Assembly (NCBI GenBank): GCA_944391495.1
Contig: CALXTU010000001.1
Coordinates: 59,981-123,980 of the forward strand
DNA from: an uncultured Alphaproteobacteria bacterium
GTDB taxonomy: Bacteria; Pseudomonadota; Alphaproteobacteria; RF32; CAG-239
DNA: 64,000 nucleotides
Direction of reading: 5' to 3'
Every line of letters starts with the position of its first letter. Position 1 is the stretch's first letter. The notes under the pieces were generated by a model. It had not been told where the DNA came from. It ran no database searches and saw nothing but the letters and a program-made list of their open reading frames with translations. Below are positions 1-9,494 of this stretch, piece after piece. The position numbers and the translations under genes are program-made.

Positions 1-1
1 G

Positions 2-826
2 CCGAATGACATCAAGCTGGTGGCCAAATACATCAACGAGCAAAATGCCCGTTTGTCGCGTCAGGTGGCCATTTCGGTTAAGATTATGCAAGTTACGGTT
101 GATGACAGCGACAACTACGGACTTGACCTGAGAGCCACTTTTGATGACGGCGTCAGCTCTATCGGTATTACCGGAACTCAGGGAATTTCTGCCGAGGATA
201 TGACCTCGTCGCTGACCTGGGGTGTCATTAAAAACAATTGGACGGCCGATGCCATTATGCAGGCTATATCCCAGAAAAACCGTACGTCTCTGATTACCAG
301 CGGTACGGTTACAACCTTAAACAACAAGCCGGCGCCGATTCAGGTTACGCAGAAGCAAAACTATATCTCGGAGATGACCAAAACCAACAACGGTACCGAC
401 GGTACGAACTATGATATCTCGGTGACCACGGAGGAAATCGAAACCGGTTTTACCCTTGATGTTTTGCCGCGTATTCTGGAGCATGGCCGGATGCTGGTTA
501 TGTTCAATATGACGCTTTCGGATCTGTTGTCGCTGGAGCGCGTCAGCTTTGGTAACGAGGATGAAAACCAGTATATTCAAAACCCGATTGTCGAATCCCG
601 CGCTTTTACTCAGGAAGTCGCCATGACATCGGGAGAGTCGCTGATTTTAACCGGCTATGAGAGAGCCTCAACCGAGACCGACAAAACCGGAACCGGTTCG
701 GCGGATAATTCGCTGCTCGGAGGAACAGCTGCTGCCGAGAGAAGCCGGAATATTCTGGTTATTGTGTTGACGCCGGTTGTTTTGGAAACGCCGCTTTCGC
801 CGGAAACAAGAATGAGCATGAATTAA
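2..826 (+). CDS. Secretin (GspD/PilQ/PilN-R64 family), C-terminal part; gene starts upstream of the window
   Basis: Open frame with no stop back to nt 2. C-terminal hydrophobic/amphipathic block ...SRNILVIVLTPVVLE matches the conserved secretin C-terminal motif. First gene of a pilus/T2SS-like operon. Confidence 0.6.
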   Translation, partial: PNDIKLVAKYINEQNARLSRQVAISVKIMQVTVDDSDNYGLDLRATFDDGVSSIGITGTQGISAEDMTSSLTWGVIKNNWTADAIMQAISQKNRTSLITSGTVTTLNNKPAPIQVTQKQNYISEMTKTNNGTDGTNYDISVTTEEIETGFTLDVLPRILEHGRMLVMFNMTLSDLLSLERVSFGNEDENQYIQNPIVESRAFTQEVAMTSGESLILTGYERASTETDKTGTGSADNSLLGGTAAAERSRNILVIVLTPVVLETPLSPETRMSMN

Positions 827-849
827 CCACCTGACAGGAGCAAGCGGAA

Positions 850-2172
850 GTGCTGGAAGACGCAAAACTTTTAGATGAAGATTACGATGAAAGTTCCGGG
901 AAGCGGACATGGGGCACGTCGATAAACGTTGACGGCGTCAATTACGCGACCAGTCTTTTCTGGCAGCCGCTGCAAAATTCCGGCGATTATCTGCAGGAAG
1001 TCGAGGAAGCGTCAAATAGTATTCTTGAAGGTGCCGACCTGTTTTGTATTAAAGGCGGTAAGGCGCCGCAGTTCGGTATCTGCGTTTCGCACGAGGGTTA
1101 CAGAAGCGGTGAAACGGTGGCGGCGGTTGCGCTGGTAACGGCACTGTCCAACGTATCGTCTTTCGTGGCGGTGTTTAAAACGTCCGAGGGCTGGTGGTAT
1201 ACCTGCGTGCGCAACGATATTATCCTGTCTGACGGCGATATGCTGTTTTTGAATGAGGAAGAGGCCAAAAATCAGTTTATGTCGATGATGGCCGTTCCGG
1301 ACTGGGGAAAGAAAATTGCCCCCAAAGAATGGGGTATTGAAGAAACCGAAGAGCTCGATTTGGGCGAATTGATTGCCCGTGGTGCCAAGATTAAGCTGCA
1401 AAAGATAAAAGGGCTGCGCGGCTCCAAGCTGATTATGGTTGTCGTTATTTCGGCGGTTGTCGGATTGTGGCTGGTATCAAGCCTGATTGACAAACTGTTC
1501 CTCACTCCGGCAAAACGACCGGTGGTGGTTCCGGTGCGACCGAAAGTCATACAGCAGGTTGCGGTTAAAGAAGTTCCGAAACCGTGGGAAGAAATTAAAA
1601 ATCCGGTTCAGTTTATGCAAGAATGTTACGACGGCATTACCAAACTGGCAACAATTATGCCGCCGGGCTGGAAAATCGGCGTTATCAGCTGCTCGGGTTC
1701 GGCCGCGGCAACTTCGTGGACAAGAGAGGTCGGACCTTTGTCGTGGGCAGATGCAGCCATGAAAAACTCCGGACTGGAGCTTGCGGGATATTCGTTTGAT
1801 GCGAGCGGAAATTCGATGACGGCGTCGCTGCCGCTTAAGCCGGCCGAAACGCTGACGTCGCCGCCGGAAAAGAACATGACGGATCTGCGCAATGCCGTTA
1901 ATAACGAGTTTCAGTCCTTAGGACTGCCGATTTCGCTGGGCGAGGAAACGGTAAAATCTGCGGCACCGGCTCCGGCTGCCGCCAGGGGACCGCGGGCCGC
2001 ACCGGCCGCAGCCGAAGTGTTTAGGGCTTTAACGTTTAATTTTAATTCACCGCACAGTCCGCTGACCTGGATGCCTTTGTTAACAAAATATTCAGGTCTT
2101 GAAATTAGGATAATTACATATTCCCCAGACTCTGATGTTTGGCATTATGAGGGAGCTATCTATGTTTTATAA
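850..2172 (+). CDS. Bitopic inner-membrane assembly protein, GspL/BfpC/PilO(R64)-like
   Basis: GTG start. Single central TM (LIMVVVISAVVGLWLVSSL) with ~190-aa cytoplasmic N-domain and ~225-aa periplasmic C-domain, the GspL-type topology. Sits between secretin and ATPase genes. Confidence 0.4.
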   Translation: MLEDAKLLDEDYDESSGKRTWGTSINVDGVNYATSLFWQPLQNSGDYLQEVEEASNSILEGADLFCIKGGKAPQFGICVSHEGYRSGETVAAVALVTALSNVSSFVAVFKTSEGWWYTCVRNDIILSDGDMLFLNEEEAKNQFMSMMAVPDWGKKIAPKEWGIEETEELDLGELIARGAKIKLQKIKGLRGSKLIMVVVISAVVGLWLVSSLIDKLFLTPAKRPVVVPVRPKVIQQVAVKEVPKPWEEIKNPVQFMQECYDGITKLATIMPPGWKIGVISCSGSAAATSWTREVGPLSWADAAMKNSGLELAGYSFDASGNSMTASLPLKPAETLTSPPEKNMTDLRNAVNNEFQSLGLPISLGEETVKSAAPAPAAARGPRAAPAAAEVFRALTFNFNSPHSPLTWMPLLTKYSGLEIRIITYSPDSDVWHYEGAIYVL

Positions 2173-3505
2173 AATGAGAAATATTTTATTGGTAACATTG
2201 TCCTGTGTTCTGGCTTTCCCGGCGGGAGCGCTTAAAGCTCAGGGTTTGGTTTCTTTATCCGAAGAGGCCATGTTTGACGACGGGCTGGACACGGGAGACG
2301 AGCTTCCGGATCTGGGGCAGCCGGCCAAACCGACAGATGCCGACCACAGTAAGGCGCCGGCCGATGACACGGCTGAAATACCGCTGATTCAGCCTAAAGC
2401 AGCTCCGGCCCCGGTAACAGCGCCCAAACCGGCAGCAGCACCGGCAATTCCGACACCTCCGGCAACCACGGCGGCCTCCGGCGGTGATGCGGCAATAAAT
2501 TTGTTCGGCAATTCGGCGGAAGAAGAGGATTTTTCCAACAGCGACCTGTTTACCCAGATGTCCGACCTGGAAAAAAGAACGGCACTTTTGAATCTGGAAC
2601 TGCGTCGCGAGAAGCTGCAAAACGAGATTGAAGCGGTTAAAAACCAAAGACGGCAGGCTTTGCAGCAGGAAAAAGACAAAATTGAACAGCAGCGCCTTAA
2701 AAACATAGAGTTTGAAAAAGAGCAGGAGCAGAAAGTTTTGGTTGAACAGCAGAAACTGCGCGATTTGGACATTCAGTTTGAAACCCTGCGGCAGGAGAAA
2801 CTGCTCGGTTCTTATAAAAACTATATGCTGGAAGAAGTTCAGAAATGGATTGCCAACAACGGCCAGTTTTATAAACAGATTGACGAACTGCGGCAGTCCA
2901 AAAGAGACCTGACGGCAAATATGAAGGCTAAGATGAAAGCAGTGCAGGACGCCGCGCGGCAGGCACAGCAGGACTATACACTCAAGGTTAACGGCTATAC
3001 GAAAGAAATTAAAGACCTGAGGGCGCAGATTAATGTTTTGCGCAACCGTATTGCCTCCATGGAAAAAGAGCAGGAAGCCATGCTGCAGAATCCGTTTGCC
3101 AATGCAGAGCCTCAGGCTCAGAACGTTACGACAACGGTCAGCGACGATATATCCGCCGATGACAGCGTCACCAAAGAGCCGGTTGAGACCGATTTGTCCA
3201 AGCTTTATGCGGTGACGGAAATCCGCGGCCAGGGCGGCGAACTCATCGCCAAGCTGATTAACAAAAACGGTACGGCCTTTTATGTTAAAAGAGGAACGGC
3301 CCTGCAGACGGGACACGTCATTACCGACATTACCTCAACTTTTGTTGCGGCGGAAAAAGATGGCGAAAAGAAATATCTGTATTTCTCTGCCGGCGGAATT
3401 GTTCCGGTCGAAACGACAAAGTTTGAGCTTGATGCCGGGGCTGTTCCGGCGGCTGCCACTACCGAAAACAATACTTCGGGCGGACCGGTCGGCGGGAGTT
3501 TGTAG
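2162..3505 (+). CDS. PilP-like secretin-binding periplasmic protein with signal peptide, Pro/Ala-rich linker and long coiled-coil
   Basis: GAGGGAG RBS before ATG 2162. Signal peptide MRNILLVTLSCVLAFPAGALKA. Pro/Ala-rich low-complexity region, then about 200 aa of Q/E/K/R heptad-like coiled-coil. C-terminal block LYAVTEIRGQGGELIAKLINKNGTAFYVKRGTALQTGHVITDI matches the PilP/GspC HR-domain pattern. Confidence 0.45.
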   Translation: MFYKMRNILLVTLSCVLAFPAGALKAQGLVSLSEEAMFDDGLDTGDELPDLGQPAKPTDADHSKAPADDTAEIPLIQPKAAPAPVTAPKPAAAPAIPTPPATTAASGGDAAINLFGNSAEEEDFSNSDLFTQMSDLEKRTALLNLELRREKLQNEIEAVKNQRRQALQQEKDKIEQQRLKNIEFEKEQEQKVLVEQQKLRDLDIQFETLRQEKLLGSYKNYMLEEVQKWIANNGQFYKQIDELRQSKRDLTANMKAKMKAVQDAARQAQQDYTLKVNGYTKEIKDLRAQINVLRNRIASMEKEQEAMLQNPFANAEPQAQNVTTTVSDDISADDSVTKEPVETDLSKLYAVTEIRGQGGELIAKLINKNGTAFYVKRGTALQTGHVITDITSTFVAAEKDGEKKYLYFSAGGIVPVETTKFELDAGAVPAAATTENNTSGGPVGGSL

Positions 3506-3529
3506 CCTCAACCAGCACGGGATTTATCC

Positions 3530-5209
3530 ATGGCCGAAGAAGATACAGAAAATACTGACAACACTCCGGCAGCAGCATCATCCGGTCAAGATGCTGCTGC
3601 GGCGTCTTCCGGTCAACCGACAACGGCCGAAACAGGCGGCGGCTCCATTAATGAGATTTACTTTTCCAACGGCAACCGGTTGTTAACCCTGCCGGGATCT
3701 TCGCTGGCGGTGAACGACGACACCCGCCGTTTGCTGGCTTTGTTCTCGGACGGGCGTTTTCTGGTTGTCGAATCGCACAAATTTGACGGACGCGTCTTAA
3801 GTTTTGAGGTTTTGGCCCGCAAAAAGAAGATGGCCATTGCCAAACCGACCTATGTTTCGCAAAACGAGCTCAACGCCATTTATTCCATCGGTGAGCGCGC
3901 TCAGGCGGCGGAAGAGGTTTCGGCCGATGCCGAACTTGACCAGCTGCAAATGCAGAAAGACTTTGTCAACGTAGTTGCCCGCGCCGCCAGCAAAAAGGTG
4001 TCGGATATTCACGTGGTGGTGGCAGACAGCACGGTGATTATGTTCCGTGTCAACGGTATGATGCAGGTTGAAATGGAATATAACAAAGAATGGGGCGAAT
4101 CTTTTGTGCGCGCGGCTTTTGCTTCGGCCGATATTTCCGACTCAAACTATGCACAAAACGAATTCCAAGGCGCGCAAAAGCTGGGTTCCACACCGTTGCG
4201 CGGCTCCAAGGGCAAATTGATGCTGCCGCACAACGTGCTGGCTATCCGTCTGCAGTTTAACCCGATTGCGTTCGGTTCGCAATATCTGGTTATGCGTCTG
4301 TTGTACGCCGATGACAATCCGGACGGCTCCGGCGATCTGGCAAGCTTAGGTTTCGGCCAGTTTGAAGAAGATTTGTTTTACCGGCTGCGCGCGGTGCCGG
4401 TAGGGTTGAGCATTATTGCCGGCCCGACGGGATCGGGAAAATCAACCACGCTGCAGCGCAACATGATTAAGCTGTTGCAGGAAAAGAACTATGAGCTTAA
4501 CCTGCTGACGGTGGAAGACCCGCCGGAGTATCCTATTCCCGGCGCCCGGCAGATGCCGGTTACCAACGCCAACACCGAAGAAGAAAAAGCCGAGCAATTT
4601 ACCAAAGCCCTGTCGGCGGCGCTGCGATCCGACCCGGACGTTATTATGGTGGGCGAAATCCGCGCGCTGGCGGCGGCGCAGCTGACGTTTCAGGGCGCGC
4701 TTTCCGGCCACGGCATGTGGTCGACGCTGCACGCCAACTCGGCGCCGGCGATTATCAACCGTTTTCGTGATATGGGGGTTGAAACGTTTAAGCTTTTGGA
4801 CCCGGAATTAATCAAGGGGCTGATTTCGCAACGTTTGTTCCGCAAATTGTGCCCTCATTGCCGGATGTCGGTCAAAGAACGGCAGAATGATCCGTCTTTT
4901 CAGCGGCTGCGGACGGCGCTGGGGGATTTTGGCGTCGAGAATGCGTTTGTGCGCGGTCCGGGCTGCAAATTCTGCAACAATACCGGTATTAAAGGGCGTA
5001 TGTGCGTGCCGGAAATTATTTTGCCGGACGCCACGTTTCTTGAACTGATGATTAAAGGCGAAACCCGTAAGGCTATTGACTACTGGACATCTGATTTGAA
5101 CGGACGTACCTTAAAAGAAGCGGCGATGGAGCGTATGCTCAAAGGCTTGATTGACCTGGACGAAGTTGAACGCTGGTGCGGCCTTTTGGACCAGAGGCCG
5201 GCGTATTAG
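3530..5209 (+). CDS. Type II/IV secretion ATPase, GspE/PilB/BfpD/TcpT family
   Basis: Walker A GPTGSGKST, Asp box and His box. C-terminal tetracysteine CPHC...CKFC characteristic of GspE/PilB-type (not Tad/VirB11-type) ATPases. Confidence 0.9.
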   Translation: MAEEDTENTDNTPAAASSGQDAAAASSGQPTTAETGGGSINEIYFSNGNRLLTLPGSSLAVNDDTRRLLALFSDGRFLVVESHKFDGRVLSFEVLARKKKMAIAKPTYVSQNELNAIYSIGERAQAAEEVSADAELDQLQMQKDFVNVVARAASKKVSDIHVVVADSTVIMFRVNGMMQVEMEYNKEWGESFVRAAFASADISDSNYAQNEFQGAQKLGSTPLRGSKGKLMLPHNVLAIRLQFNPIAFGSQYLVMRLLYADDNPDGSGDLASLGFGQFEEDLFYRLRAVPVGLSIIAGPTGSGKSTTLQRNMIKLLQEKNYELNLLTVEDPPEYPIPGARQMPVTNANTEEEKAEQFTKALSAALRSDPDVIMVGEIRALAAAQLTFQGALSGHGMWSTLHANSAPAIINRFRDMGVETFKLLDPELIKGLISQRLFRKLCPHCRMSVKERQNDPSFQRLRTALGDFGVENAFVRGPGCKFCNNTGIKGRMCVPEIILPDATFLELMIKGETRKAIDYWTSDLNGRTLKEAAMERMLKGLIDLDEVERWCGLLDQRPAY

Positions 5210-5226
5210 GATAAGGATCGGAAATT

Positions 5227-6363
5227 ATGGCTGACGAAGAAGCTCTTAAGAGAAAACATCAATCAAAATCGCTGCAGGCAGCGATGAAAAAATTGAACAA
5301 GGCAGAAGAATATTATGCCCGGCTGATTATTCAGTTTTCAAACAAAACGCGGCTGAAGCTTTATCGCAAGATTGCCTCGCTGATGCGCAACCGCTTTTCG
5401 TTGATGGACGCTTTGGATATGCTGCACGACAGCGCATCAAACGGCGGCAAAAACCCCGGCGAACCGCTGGCGATTGCCATTGCCGCGTGGGGGCGCTCGC
5501 TCAACAACGGTAAAACTTTTTCCGAGGCGCTGAAAGGCTGGGCGCCGGACCGCGAACGTCTGATGCTTTCGGTGGGCGATGTCTCTGACCTGGAAGGCGC
5601 GTTGATGAACCTGATTAAAGTAACCGAAGGATCTACCAAAATGATCCGTCCGATTATCGGAGCGATTTCTTACCCGAGCTTTCTGATGATGATGGCGGTT
5701 TTGATTATTTACGCCATCGGCGTTTACATGGTGCCGCCGATGATGGACGCGGCGCCGAACGTCCGCTGGCGCGGGCTGGCTAAGAATCTGGTGGATTTGT
5801 CCGGCTGGATTAAAGACAACTGGCTGATTGCCTTTGCAGCGCTGCCGATTCTTATGGCTGTCATTTATTTTACCATCAGTATCTGGACCGGCAAAATCCG
5901 CGCTTTGTTTGACAATATTCCGCCATGGTCGCTGTATAAAAGCTTTGTCGGCATCAGCTGGCTGCTGGCGATGGCGGCGCTGATCAAGGGCGGCACGCCG
6001 GTTTCGACCGCGATGCGGGCGCTGCGCCGCGATGCAACCCGTTATCTTAAAGAGCGGATTGACAAAACACTGATCTTCATCAATAACGGTGACAATTTGG
6101 GACAGGCATTGGCCAAAACGGGCCTGAATTTTCCGGAAAAAGAGTTGATTGACGATTTGAAGATTTATTCCGAACTGGATAATTTTGAAGAGGCGCTGGA
6201 CAACCTGGCCAACGAATGGCTGGAAGAATCCGTCTATTCAATTGAGGAAAAAGCCGGCGTTTTAAACATGGTTGCCCTGCTGGCCATCGGCGGCGTTATT
6301 GCCTGGGCGGTTATGGGAACCTTTGATATGCAAGACCAAATTACCAGCAGCATGGGGAGTTAG
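5227..6363 (+). CDS. Inner-membrane platform protein, GspF/PilC/BfpE family
   Basis: 378 aa with two repeated cytoplasmic domains (LMDALDMLHDSASNGGKNP...GKTFSEAL pattern) and three hydrophobic TM segments. Immediately follows the ATPase. Confidence 0.7.
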   Translation: MADEEALKRKHQSKSLQAAMKKLNKAEEYYARLIIQFSNKTRLKLYRKIASLMRNRFSLMDALDMLHDSASNGGKNPGEPLAIAIAAWGRSLNNGKTFSEALKGWAPDRERLMLSVGDVSDLEGALMNLIKVTEGSTKMIRPIIGAISYPSFLMMMAVLIIYAIGVYMVPPMMDAAPNVRWRGLAKNLVDLSGWIKDNWLIAFAALPILMAVIYFTISIWTGKIRALFDNIPPWSLYKSFVGISWLLAMAALIKGGTPVSTAMRALRRDATRYLKERIDKTLIFINNGDNLGQALAKTGLNFPEKELIDDLKIYSELDNFEEALDNLANEWLEESVYSIEEKAGVLNMVALLAIGGVIAWAVMGTFDMQDQITSSMGS

Positions 6364-6365
6364 GC

Positions 6366-6971
6366 ATGGACATCAAACAAAAACTCAACCAGATAAAACA
6401 TAAGCTGCAGCACCTGCTCCGGCAACGCGGCCGGTTGATTGCCGCGGCGGCCGGCTCGGCAGCGGTTGTCGTGATTGTTGCGGTGCTGATTATCGGCGGA
6501 CAGCAGGATATCGGCGCGCAGGAAGCCGGACAGCAGATTATCAAACTGGCACAAAACATTCGCAACCGCTATCAAACCCGGCCGGATTTCTGGGGACTGA
6601 GCACGGCGGAGGTTATCCGGCAGAAGATGTATCCGTTGAGCATGACGGCGGAAGGCGGAAAGCTGACCGGATATTTCGGCAACCGGGTGCAGGTGGGCGC
6701 TGATGCCTCCGGCACGGCAGTGATGCCGACGGTGCGACGATTTGTGATTGCCTATAACGGCCTCAACCGCAAACAGTGCCTGGCGCTGGGGACATATAAA
6801 TTTACGCGGGATTTTTGGCTGGGCGTCAGCGGTATGACGATTGAAGCAGAGGGCGCGCAACGGCTGTTTGACTGGAGTTCTAAGGAGCTGGCGTTGCCGG
6901 CGGCCAAAGATATTGTCGGGAAAATTTGCCGAAGCCAAAAAAACAATATTATTTTTCACTTTGAACAATGA
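6366..6971 (+). CDS. Bitopic periplasmic assembly protein, GspM/PilN/PilO-like topology
   Basis: GGGGAG RBS. Short basic cytoplasmic N-terminus, one TM (AAAAGSAAVVVIVAVLIIGG), ~150-aa periplasmic domain. Translationally coupled to the platform gene. Not a pilin: no Glu at +5. Confidence 0.35.
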   Translation: MDIKQKLNQIKHKLQHLLRQRGRLIAAAAGSAAVVVIVAVLIIGGQQDIGAQEAGQQIIKLAQNIRNRYQTRPDFWGLSTAEVIRQKMYPLSMTAEGGKLTGYFGNRVQVGADASGTAVMPTVRRFVIAYNGLNRKQCLALGTYKFTRDFWLGVSGMTIEAEGAQRLFDWSSKELALPAAKDIVGKICRSQKNNIIFHFEQ

Positions 6972-7132
6972 TATTTACCATTAATTAAGGGATTAATTCT
7001 ATACTGAAACCAACATATGACTAAAGTCATAGGCATGATATTGTGGATTATGACTAATGGCAGAATTGCCGAAAGCGATTTTCTTTGATAAGATGAAAGC
7101 ATAATAACGGCAATTTTATGAGGAGAAAGACC

Positions 7133-7753
7133 ATGACTATTTTATCAAGAACTGAGCAAACAGGCCGTTCGATGGTGGAGATGCTGGGCGTGCTGGCGAT
7201 TATCGGCGTGTTATCCGTCGGCGGTATTTCGGGTTATTCAAAAGCGATGGCCAAATATAAACTGACCAAGGCTCAGGATCAGATTACGATGTTGCTGATG
7301 AACATTCGTACCGCTTATGCTACCAGTCCGAGTTATAGCGGGTTGACTACAGCTGCCGTAGCCGCTTACAACATCGCTCCGGGTGAAATGATTGTCGGGA
7401 CGGCCTCGATTGGTGATTCTGGCGCCACCGGCTCTGCAACTCTTAACGGCGCTTTCGGTGGTGCAGTAAATGTTGCGTCACTGGGAGCTCGTGATTCTTA
7501 CTTCTATATTCAGATGCGTGCGTTGGCACCGGAGGCCTGCCGTTCTTTGGCATCTTCTGACTGGGGTGCAGACGGTTTGGTTATGATGTCTGTCGGTGCG
7601 GATGCAGCGGTAGCTGTTGCAGATGATGACGTTGACCAAACTTGTACATCAGGCGGTGATAACTTCTGTGCGGGAGATCTGCCTTTGGGTTTAGCTACTG
7701 CAGCATCTCAATGTGATAATGCAATTAACCAGATTACTTGGGTTTACTACTAA
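7133..7753 (+). CDS. Type IV prepilin (type IVb-like size, 206 aa)
   Basis: AGGAGAAAG RBS sits directly before ATG 7133; the ORF-track start 7118 lies inside this RBS. Leader MTILSRTEQTG then cleavage-site consensus G|RSMVEML with Glu at +5 and hydrophobic alpha1-N (GVLAIIGVLSVGG). Four Cys in the C-terminal half are consistent with a D-region disulfide. Confidence 0.8.
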   Translation: MTILSRTEQTGRSMVEMLGVLAIIGVLSVGGISGYSKAMAKYKLTKAQDQITMLLMNIRTAYATSPSYSGLTTAAVAAYNIAPGEMIVGTASIGDSGATGSATLNGAFGGAVNVASLGARDSYFYIQMRALAPEACRSLASSDWGADGLVMMSVGADAAVAVADDDVDQTCTSGGDNFCAGDLPLGLATAASQCDNAINQITWVYY

Positions 7754-7857
7754 TAGTATGCAAGAAAGCTCCTCAAGACTTGCCGGTTTTATACCGGCAA
7801 GTCTTTTGTGTGTTTTTTGACTGTTATGCTTGACGGAGGTGACGGTTTTTAAAGCGT

Positions 7858-8016
7858 GTCATGTTGAGCGGGAGCGAAACATCTTAGAGATTCTTCGGGA
7901 CTTGCGTCCCTCAGAATGACGACTAAAATGTCATGTTGAGGAGCAAGGCGCCGAAACATCTTAGAGATTCTTCGCTAACGCTCAGAATGACAGGGAAGTG
8001 ACGCTCGGAATGACGG
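7858..8016. repeat. Family-A palindromic repeat, two tandem units plus a partial third
   Basis: Units 7858-7920 and 7930-7991 share gtcatgttgag...gaaacatcttagagattcttcg...tcagaatgac. Unit 1 carries the GC hairpin gggac-ttgc-gtccc. Related copies at 10382, 10777, 21887 and 37956. Confidence 0.85.
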
Positions 8017-8112
8017 TTTTAAAAGTGATGTTATTGCACCGATGCTTGACAGGGTGGCGCAAAATCAATTAATATGACCACCGTTTTAACAACCGCAGGA
8101 CAAATATTCATT

Positions 8113-8898
8113 ATGAAAATCGGCGTTTTTGATTCCGGCCTCGGCGGACTGGTTATTACAAGAGCTTTTGTTGAAGCCCTGCCGAAATATGACTATGTTT
8201 ATTACGGCGACACCGCCCGCCTGCCGTACGGCGAAAAAACCTCCGGACAAATACTTTCATACACCATTGAAGCCGTTAAGTTTTTGATTGCGCAAAACTG
8301 CGGTCTGATCATCATTGCCTGCAACACGGCCACATCAATAGCCCTGCGCTATCTGCAGCAACGGTTTATTCCGTCGTTTTCGCCGGATACCAAAGTTTTG
8401 GGCGTGGTTATTCCGACAGTTGAAGAAGCCGCGGCCGGCAATGCCGCCCGGGTTGGGGTTTTGGCAACCAATGCCACGGTTCGTTCGCACATCTACCAAA
8501 CCGAACTGCAAAAAATAAACCCGGCGGCCGAGGTCTTTGAAACCGCTGCGCCGGCACTGGTTCCGGCCATTGAGGCCAATGATTTTGCTGCCGCCGAAAA
8601 AGCCGCCGCCGAATATGTTCGCGCCTTTGATAATATTGATTCGCTTATTCTCGGCTGTACCCATTATCCGCTGCTCAAAACGACATTCCGCCGGCTGGTT
8701 TCGGAAAAAACACGGGTTGTGTCACAAGACGAATTGATGGGCGCCAAACTACGCAATTATCTTGAACGCCATATCGAAATAGACATCACTTTAAGCCGCG
8801 ACGGCAGCCTCAAAGCCATTGTCAGCCGGCTGAACGACCATTATAACGAAGTTGCCGGACGGTTGTTTCCGGGGATTGTTCTGGAGGAAAAAAACTGA
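8113..8898 (+). CDS. murI: Glutamate racemase
   Basis: MKIGVFDSGLGGL, IACNTA and GCTHYP motifs. ATG 8113 preferred over ORF-track start 8074 because MurI proteins begin just before IGVFDSG. Confidence 0.9.
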   Translation: MKIGVFDSGLGGLVITRAFVEALPKYDYVYYGDTARLPYGEKTSGQILSYTIEAVKFLIAQNCGLIIIACNTATSIALRYLQQRFIPSFSPDTKVLGVVIPTVEEAAAGNAARVGVLATNATVRSHIYQTELQKINPAAEVFETAAPALVPAIEANDFAAAEKAAAEYVRAFDNIDSLILGCTHYPLLKTTFRRLVSEKTRVVSQDELMGAKLRNYLERHIEIDITLSRDGSLKAIVSRLNDHYNEVAGRLFPGIVLEEKN

Positions 8899-9494
8899 TG
8901 CGTAAAGACTTTTATCTTTTCCGCCACGGTGAAACCGCCTATAACCACGAGGGGCGCTGGCAGGGACGAAGTGTTGATTTACCGCTTGATGCGACCGGGC
9001 TGGCACAGGCAGAAATGCTGGCGAAAAACCTGGCCGGAAAAAGACTGGAAGTTATTTATTCATCGCCGCTGGCGCGCGCCCGTCAGACTGCACAGGCCGT
9101 TGCCGCGGCCGCCGACGTTGAGGTGCGGATTCTGCCGGAGCTGACCGAAGGTGATTTAGGTGTTTGCGAGGGAATGTTCAAAACGGATATTGCCGCACAA
9201 TATCCGGAGCTTTGGCACAAATGGTATGACGAAACCACCGCCACGGACACCCGCTGGCCGGGCGGCGAAAGCAAGCTTGAAATGCAGCAGCGAATGTTCC
9301 GCGGATTTGAAAAAATGCTCTCTGCGCCGGAAAATATTATCGGCGCGGCCTCGCACAGCGGCTCAATGCGGTATTTTTTGCTGGCATTCGGTTACGGGCC
9401 GCATAAAATTCCCAATACTGCCGTGTTTCATCTGGTATATGACGGTTCCTGGCACTTGTCCGAAATATTCGGCAACACAGACAAAAGGAGATAA
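8898..9494 (+). CDS. Histidine phosphatase family protein (phosphoglycerate mutase-like)
   Basis: N-terminal LFRHGETAYN (RHG catalytic motif). GGAGGA RBS. ATGA overlap with the murI stop. Confidence 0.75.
   Translation: MRKDFYLFRHGETAYNHEGRWQGRSVDLPLDATGLAQAEMLAKNLAGKRLEVIYSSPLARARQTAQAVAAAADVEVRILPELTEGDLGVCEGMFKTDIAAQYPELWHKWYDETTATDTRWPGGESKLEMQQRMFRGFEKMLSAPENIIGAASHSGSMRYFLLAFGYGPHKIPNTAVFHLVYDGSWHLSEIFGNTDKRR

Follow-up and report, generated by a model that had tools for sequence, protein, structure and literature searches.

The plus-strand gene at positions 2162–3505 of the window, by which we mean the whole 64,000-nucleotide stretch of DNA that was analysed, very probably encodes the PilP-type coupling protein of a type IVb pilus machine of the R64 kind in an uncultured gut alphaproteobacterium. 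Its 447-aa product is a PilP enlarged about two to three times; it is a variant of a known part and not a new system.

The open reading frame (ORF) spans positions 2135–3505 on the plus strand. The ATG at 2162 is its likely start, because a GAGGGAG Shine-Dalgarno sequence lies upstream and the first Met of homologues coincides with it; initiation at this codon gives the 447-aa product. The start of the ORF overlaps the end of the pilO2 gene (stop at 2172), suggesting translational coupling. The following features were identified around it:

1–826, plus strand: C-terminal part of a PilN-family type IVb secretin (PF00263; TIGR02520 profile positions 261–513)
850–2172, plus strand: PilO2, an R64-type bitopic inner-membrane protein (PF06864, E 6.4e-18)
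2149–2155, plus strand: Shine-Dalgarno sequence GAGGGAG, found in the sequence six bases 5' of the ATG at 2162
3530–5209, plus strand: T2SSE assembly ATPase (profile match)
5227–6363, plus strand: T2SSF platform protein (profile match)
6366–6971 and 7118–7753, plus strand: two tandem PilS/bundlin-type pilin genes (profile match)

The operon order is therefore secretin PilN, PilO2, the 447-aa ORF, T2SSE ATPase, T2SSF platform protein, and PilS pilins, and the ORF occupies the pilP slot, with pilO2 (PF06864) on one side and the T2SSE ATPase on the other. An IncI plasmid locus (L001) has the identical gene order, the corresponding PilP being 150 aa long, and the operon order of a related locus (L005) matches that of both; in a Bosea plasmid, the pilP slot holds a 307-aa ORF. 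We used megablast to compare positions 1–9000 of the window with plasmids, and this analysis returned no plasmid match. Housekeeping genes flank both the present operon (murI) and L005 (ROK kinase, PNP, and a XerC/D-like recombinase). Based on these flanks and the lack of a plasmid match, the operon looks chromosomal.

The AlphaFold2 monomer model of the protein, for which the input alignment contained 102 sequences (pTM 0.30), comprises a signal-peptide helix (residues 3–17), a disordered region (27–134, with pLDDT <50, as it is over most of 47–126), a helix (135–308), a second disordered region (309–344), and six beta strands (349–408, block-mean pLDDT 83–94). This agrees with the initial annotation, which had described a signal peptide, a Pro/Ala-rich spacer, a very long helix, and a C-terminal HR-type domain in that order. 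Combining the model with sequence motifs and composition, we divided the gene as follows:

2162–2239, plus strand: Sec signal peptide, residues 1–26 (AlphaFold2 helix at 3–17; putative A-L-K-A / Q-G cleavage site; no lipobox)
2240–2287, plus strand: acidic motif at the mature N-terminus, conserved as QG(L/V)VSLSEEAMFDD(G/E)L
2288–2563, plus strand: disordered spacer, residues 43–134 (low pLDDT; composition)
2564–2758, plus strand: long helix, N-terminal part, residues 135–199 (helix pLDDT 86–96; z = −0.6 for heptads)
2759–3085, plus strand: long helix, C-terminal part, residues 200–308, a candidate coiled coil (pLDDT 95–98; heptad z = 4.9)
3086–3193, plus strand: disordered linker, residues 309–344 (pLDDT <50 at 317–340), opening with NPFA
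3194–3391, plus strand: HR-type beta domain (PilP/GspC homology-region fold), residues 345–410
3392–3505, plus strand: C-terminal tail, residues 411–447, and stop codon (GG(I/V)(L/V)PxE, then variable disorder with low pLDDT)

The spacer is Pro/Ala-rich (17 Ala and 11 Pro in 65 residues) to approximately residue 105 and acidic beyond, and the Pro/Ala-rich linker sequence quoted in the initial annotation, APAPVTAPKPAAAPAIPTPPATTAAS, is indeed present at residues 80–105. On the other side of the helix, N310 and P311 of the NPFA motif occur in ≥90% of sequences and F312 is invariant, as are G411, G412, P415, and E417 of the tail motif at residues 411–417.

A26, Q27, and G28 are each found in ≥90% of family sequences, and among the relatives inspected the cleavage-site residues are A at position −1 and A, V, L, or T at position −3. 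Based on the conserved A-x-A site and the absent lipobox, we infer that the product is exported, cut by signal peptidase I, and soluble in the periplasm. The same A-x-A/QG site, together with the lack of a lipobox, rules out a lipoprotein; Cys15 falls within the hydrophobic core and varies among relatives, several of which have Phe instead. Within the motif SLSEEAMFDD at the predicted mature N-terminus, L32, S33, and A36 are invariant and E34, M37, and F38 occur in ≥90% of sequences; a distant 361-aa relative (P0258) carries the related N-terminal form EEDAMFSMDD. This acidic motif is probably a short docking peptide.

Profile comparisons suggest sequence kinship between the 447-aa protein and the PilP family. 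The proposed match of its C-terminal domain to the PilP HR domain held up in Foldseek, which agrees with an HR fold. Residues 286–395 matched TIGR03021 (pilP_fam) at E 4.9e-6, but this match scored 27.6 bits, under the curated cut-off of 34.65, and the hhalign alignment of residues 281–398 with canonical PilP (E 6.3e-4) had a probability of only 28%. TIGR03021 was matched by all members of the family (102/102), with a best E of 4e-9. No Pfam family match was found for the ORF at E ≤0.1, and PDB sequence profile matches (e.g., ATP synthase subunit d, E 0.003) were rejected as chance helical matches reflecting composition. In GspC and PilP, the HR fold binds the secretin N0 domain. The N0 domain is the expected partner of PilP, and here it is encoded upstream of the window.

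The protein shares with R64/IncI-type PilP (TIGR03021) its place in the operon, with pilO2 before it and the ATPase after it, a cleavable signal peptide with no lipobox, and the succession of helix, linker, and C-terminal HR beta domain. R64 PilP had initially been described as a lipoprotein, which is incorrect, as R64-type PilP has no lipobox Cys. The greater length claimed for the present protein was confirmed: full-length enterobacterial PilP proteins are 145–236 aa long with a helix of ~30 residues, whereas here a 447-aa protein contains a helix of 174 residues. R64-type PilP also lacks both the conserved acidic N-terminal motif and the disordered spacer of ~90 residues, which is Pro/Ala-rich and acidic.

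Other known systems differ in the following respects. Type IVa PilP (P. aeruginosa 2Y4X/2LC4, N. meningitidis 2IVW, M. xanthus 3JC8), a lipoprotein of about 170–180 aa, likewise has a disordered region N-terminal to its domain, but it has no long helix, and its PilN/PilO partners are missing from the present operon; the 447-aa protein has neither the invariant lipobox Cys nor a Pfam PilP match. In GspC, a transmembrane helix at the N-terminus serves as anchor, and the HR domain is followed by a PDZ or short coiled-coil domain. Compared with the GspC HR domain (PDB 3OSS chain C), the long helix of the 447-aa protein lies N-terminal to HR and there is no membrane anchor; the signal peptide is cleavable, and the post-HR region consists only of a disordered 37-residue tail. 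DotF, a component of a conjugation-type secretion system, is held by a transmembrane anchor, whereas the gene studied here lies in a pilus operon.

AlphaFold2 predicted residues 135–308 as a single unbroken helix with pLDDT mostly >90, which would measure ~26 nm if straight. The region had been annotated as a coiled coil of ~200 residues; it is indeed helical and not disordered, and the helix is very long, but it comprises 174 residues, and heptads are significant only within residues 200–308. Heptads were scored by tracking the register on family hydrophobicity with shuffle controls; an earlier sliding-window score was dropped, as it gave high values for Ala-rich low-complexity sequence too. 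Residues 200–308 showed heptad periodicity (z = 4.9, 0/500 shuffles) and are a candidate coiled coil, whereas residues 135–200 showed no pattern above chance (z = −0.6). The last ~25 helix residues align to the short helix of canonical PilP (profile alignment from 281/286 onward). The span of the helix region is 182–191 residues in 177 full-length relatives and exactly 185 residues in 123 of them, although these proteins range from 400 to 626 aa in total length and their helix region begins anywhere from residue 81 to residue 278. Thus, the spacer preceding the helix is hypervariable in length (~200-residue variation), and the helix region is nearly indel-free. Across genomes, helix lengths fall into classes of about 30, 100–160, and 185 residues. 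By eye, the helix extension appears ER/K-rich in some distant relatives, such as P0243, and judging from these sequences a long helix persists in relatives even with differing chemistry. This near absence of indels and the conserved mature N-terminal motif SLSEEAMFDD, both read from the family sequences, are newly noted here. Among the neighbouring genes of the present locus and L005, we found none encoding a coiled coil of a length matching the 174-residue helix; on inspection, PilO2 lacks a long helix, the 684-aa upstream ORF of L005 is Pro/Ala-rich low-complexity sequence, and the TcpQ-like protein is a small lipoprotein.

We consider the best overall explanation, and a reasonably likely one, to be a PilP-equivalent subunit with a strut helix and a tethered peptide. 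The mechanism by which strut and peptide would act together is put forward more tentatively. The HR domains would dock on the N0 ring of the PilN secretin, and the 174-residue helix, as an elongated form of the ~30-residue canonical PilP helix, would serve as a stiff, fixed-length strut, with its heptad-bearing C-terminal ~110 residues self-associating or packing against a partner. The acidic N-terminal peptide, on its flexible Pro/Ala tether of variable length, would dock on another machine component, for which the periplasmic part of PilO2 is the likeliest candidate. TolA domain II and Braun lipoprotein Lpp also have long periplasmic helices whose length is tied to envelope spacing, TolA being membrane-anchored and Lpp lipid-anchored and peptidoglycan-linked; we cite them as functional analogues only, for the proposed helix mechanism, and claim no kinship in sequence or fold. 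By analogy with PilP and GspC elsewhere, the parts would jointly connect the pore in the outer membrane with the platform in the inner one; type IVa PilP bridges the secretin and the inner-membrane subcomplex (PMC10191384).

The initial annotation had further proposed that the helix sets a fixed distance. This is plausible and gains support from the indel-free length; however, a membrane anchor is lacking, and the linker N-terminal to the helix varies widely in length. A helix of 26 nm also exceeds the gap usually assumed between the secretin N0 ring and the inner membrane, so it may be tilted or run alongside the secretin, and the indel-free length could stem from conserved contacts, with no ruler function required. 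We regard as rather unlikely a molecular ruler in which a soluble strut of ~26 nm sets the spacing from secretin ring to platform, or how wide the periplasm is locally, with the N-terminal peptide as a second attachment.

Conserved contacts are central to an alternative in which the helix is a long interaction surface and not a spacer, binding other periplasmic partners such as the periplasmic domain of PilO2, the pilin or the stem of the pilus, peptidoglycan, or the outside of the secretin; such contacts would keep helix length constant without any distance requirement. Polar as well as hydrophobic positions are strongly conserved at residues 131–160 and 190–240, and this degree of conservation goes beyond the needs of a passive spacer. 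Residues 135–199 are highly conserved, charged, and Q/E/K/R-rich, and they include the motif MSD(L/I)EKRTALLNLELRREKLQNEIE, which is common to distant shorter relatives; it is this heptad-free part of the helix, and precisely the first ~73 helix-region (helix-HMM) positions, that distant relatives retain. Residues 245–285, however, are poorly conserved yet indel-free, and in some relatives the distal helix is replaced by low-complexity sequence that looks ER/K-rich, so specific binding is unlikely there. An interaction surface along the helix is doubtful as an explanation.

It is improbable that the helix instead folds back, or bundles with neighbouring subunits, to form a compact ring or cage under the secretin, similar to the periplasmic rings known from other secretin machines, with no 26-nm rod. 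AlphaFold2 monomer models give straight rods by default for isolated coiled-coil sequences, the pTM is only 0.30, the fitted heptad register requires several shifts, and the query helix has glycines at 216, 234, and 278; yet the model from the 102-sequence alignment contains no intrachain helix–helix packing and shows 135–308 as one helix with pLDDT >90, and these glycines are not conserved in the family consensus. A monomeric, spring-like ER/K-type single alpha-helix, which the richness of the region in charge and Gln and the ER/K-rich-looking extensions of relatives such as P0243 might suggest, is very improbable and was rejected for the 447-aa protein, given only 0–2 opposite-charge i to i+4 pairs per 21 residues (judged too few, by an uncalibrated yardstick), an E/K/R/D fraction of 0.19–0.48, and a clear hydrophobic seam along residues 200–308.

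The architecture of signal peptide, spacer, long helix, and HR domain that underlies the strut-helix explanation was found in the genomes of 53 uncultured Alphaproteobacteria from the gut. The beta domain is shared by 153 protein clusters (50% identity), most of which contain proteins of 400–626 aa. The long-helix architecture, initially described as unusual, is the rule within its own clade and no oddity. Automated pipelines already call some long relatives PilP, and the few named relatives that we encountered are mostly labelled "hypothetical protein." We searched the literature for long forms of PilP and for pili in these gut bacteria, and no specific report emerged. The present gene has no Pfam match and an NCBIfam score below the cut-off; our results allow such relatives to be named as long-form PilP. 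As the hosts are Alphaproteobacteria of the gut that have not been cultured, the practical impact is limited.

To our knowledge, nothing but PilP and GspC proteins physically links secretin pores to inner-membrane assembly platforms, and little is understood of how type IVb machines keep pore and platform aligned across the periplasm. The clade described here keeps the HR domain, has a helix before it that is approximately six-fold longer, and tolerates almost no change in the length of that helix. Its combination of a fixed helix with a variable linker offers a natural experiment that bears on whether the geometry of the machine depends on the length of the helix. If the helix were truly a ruler, PilP length would be a tunable parameter that determines the geometry of the envelope where type IV pilus machines sit.

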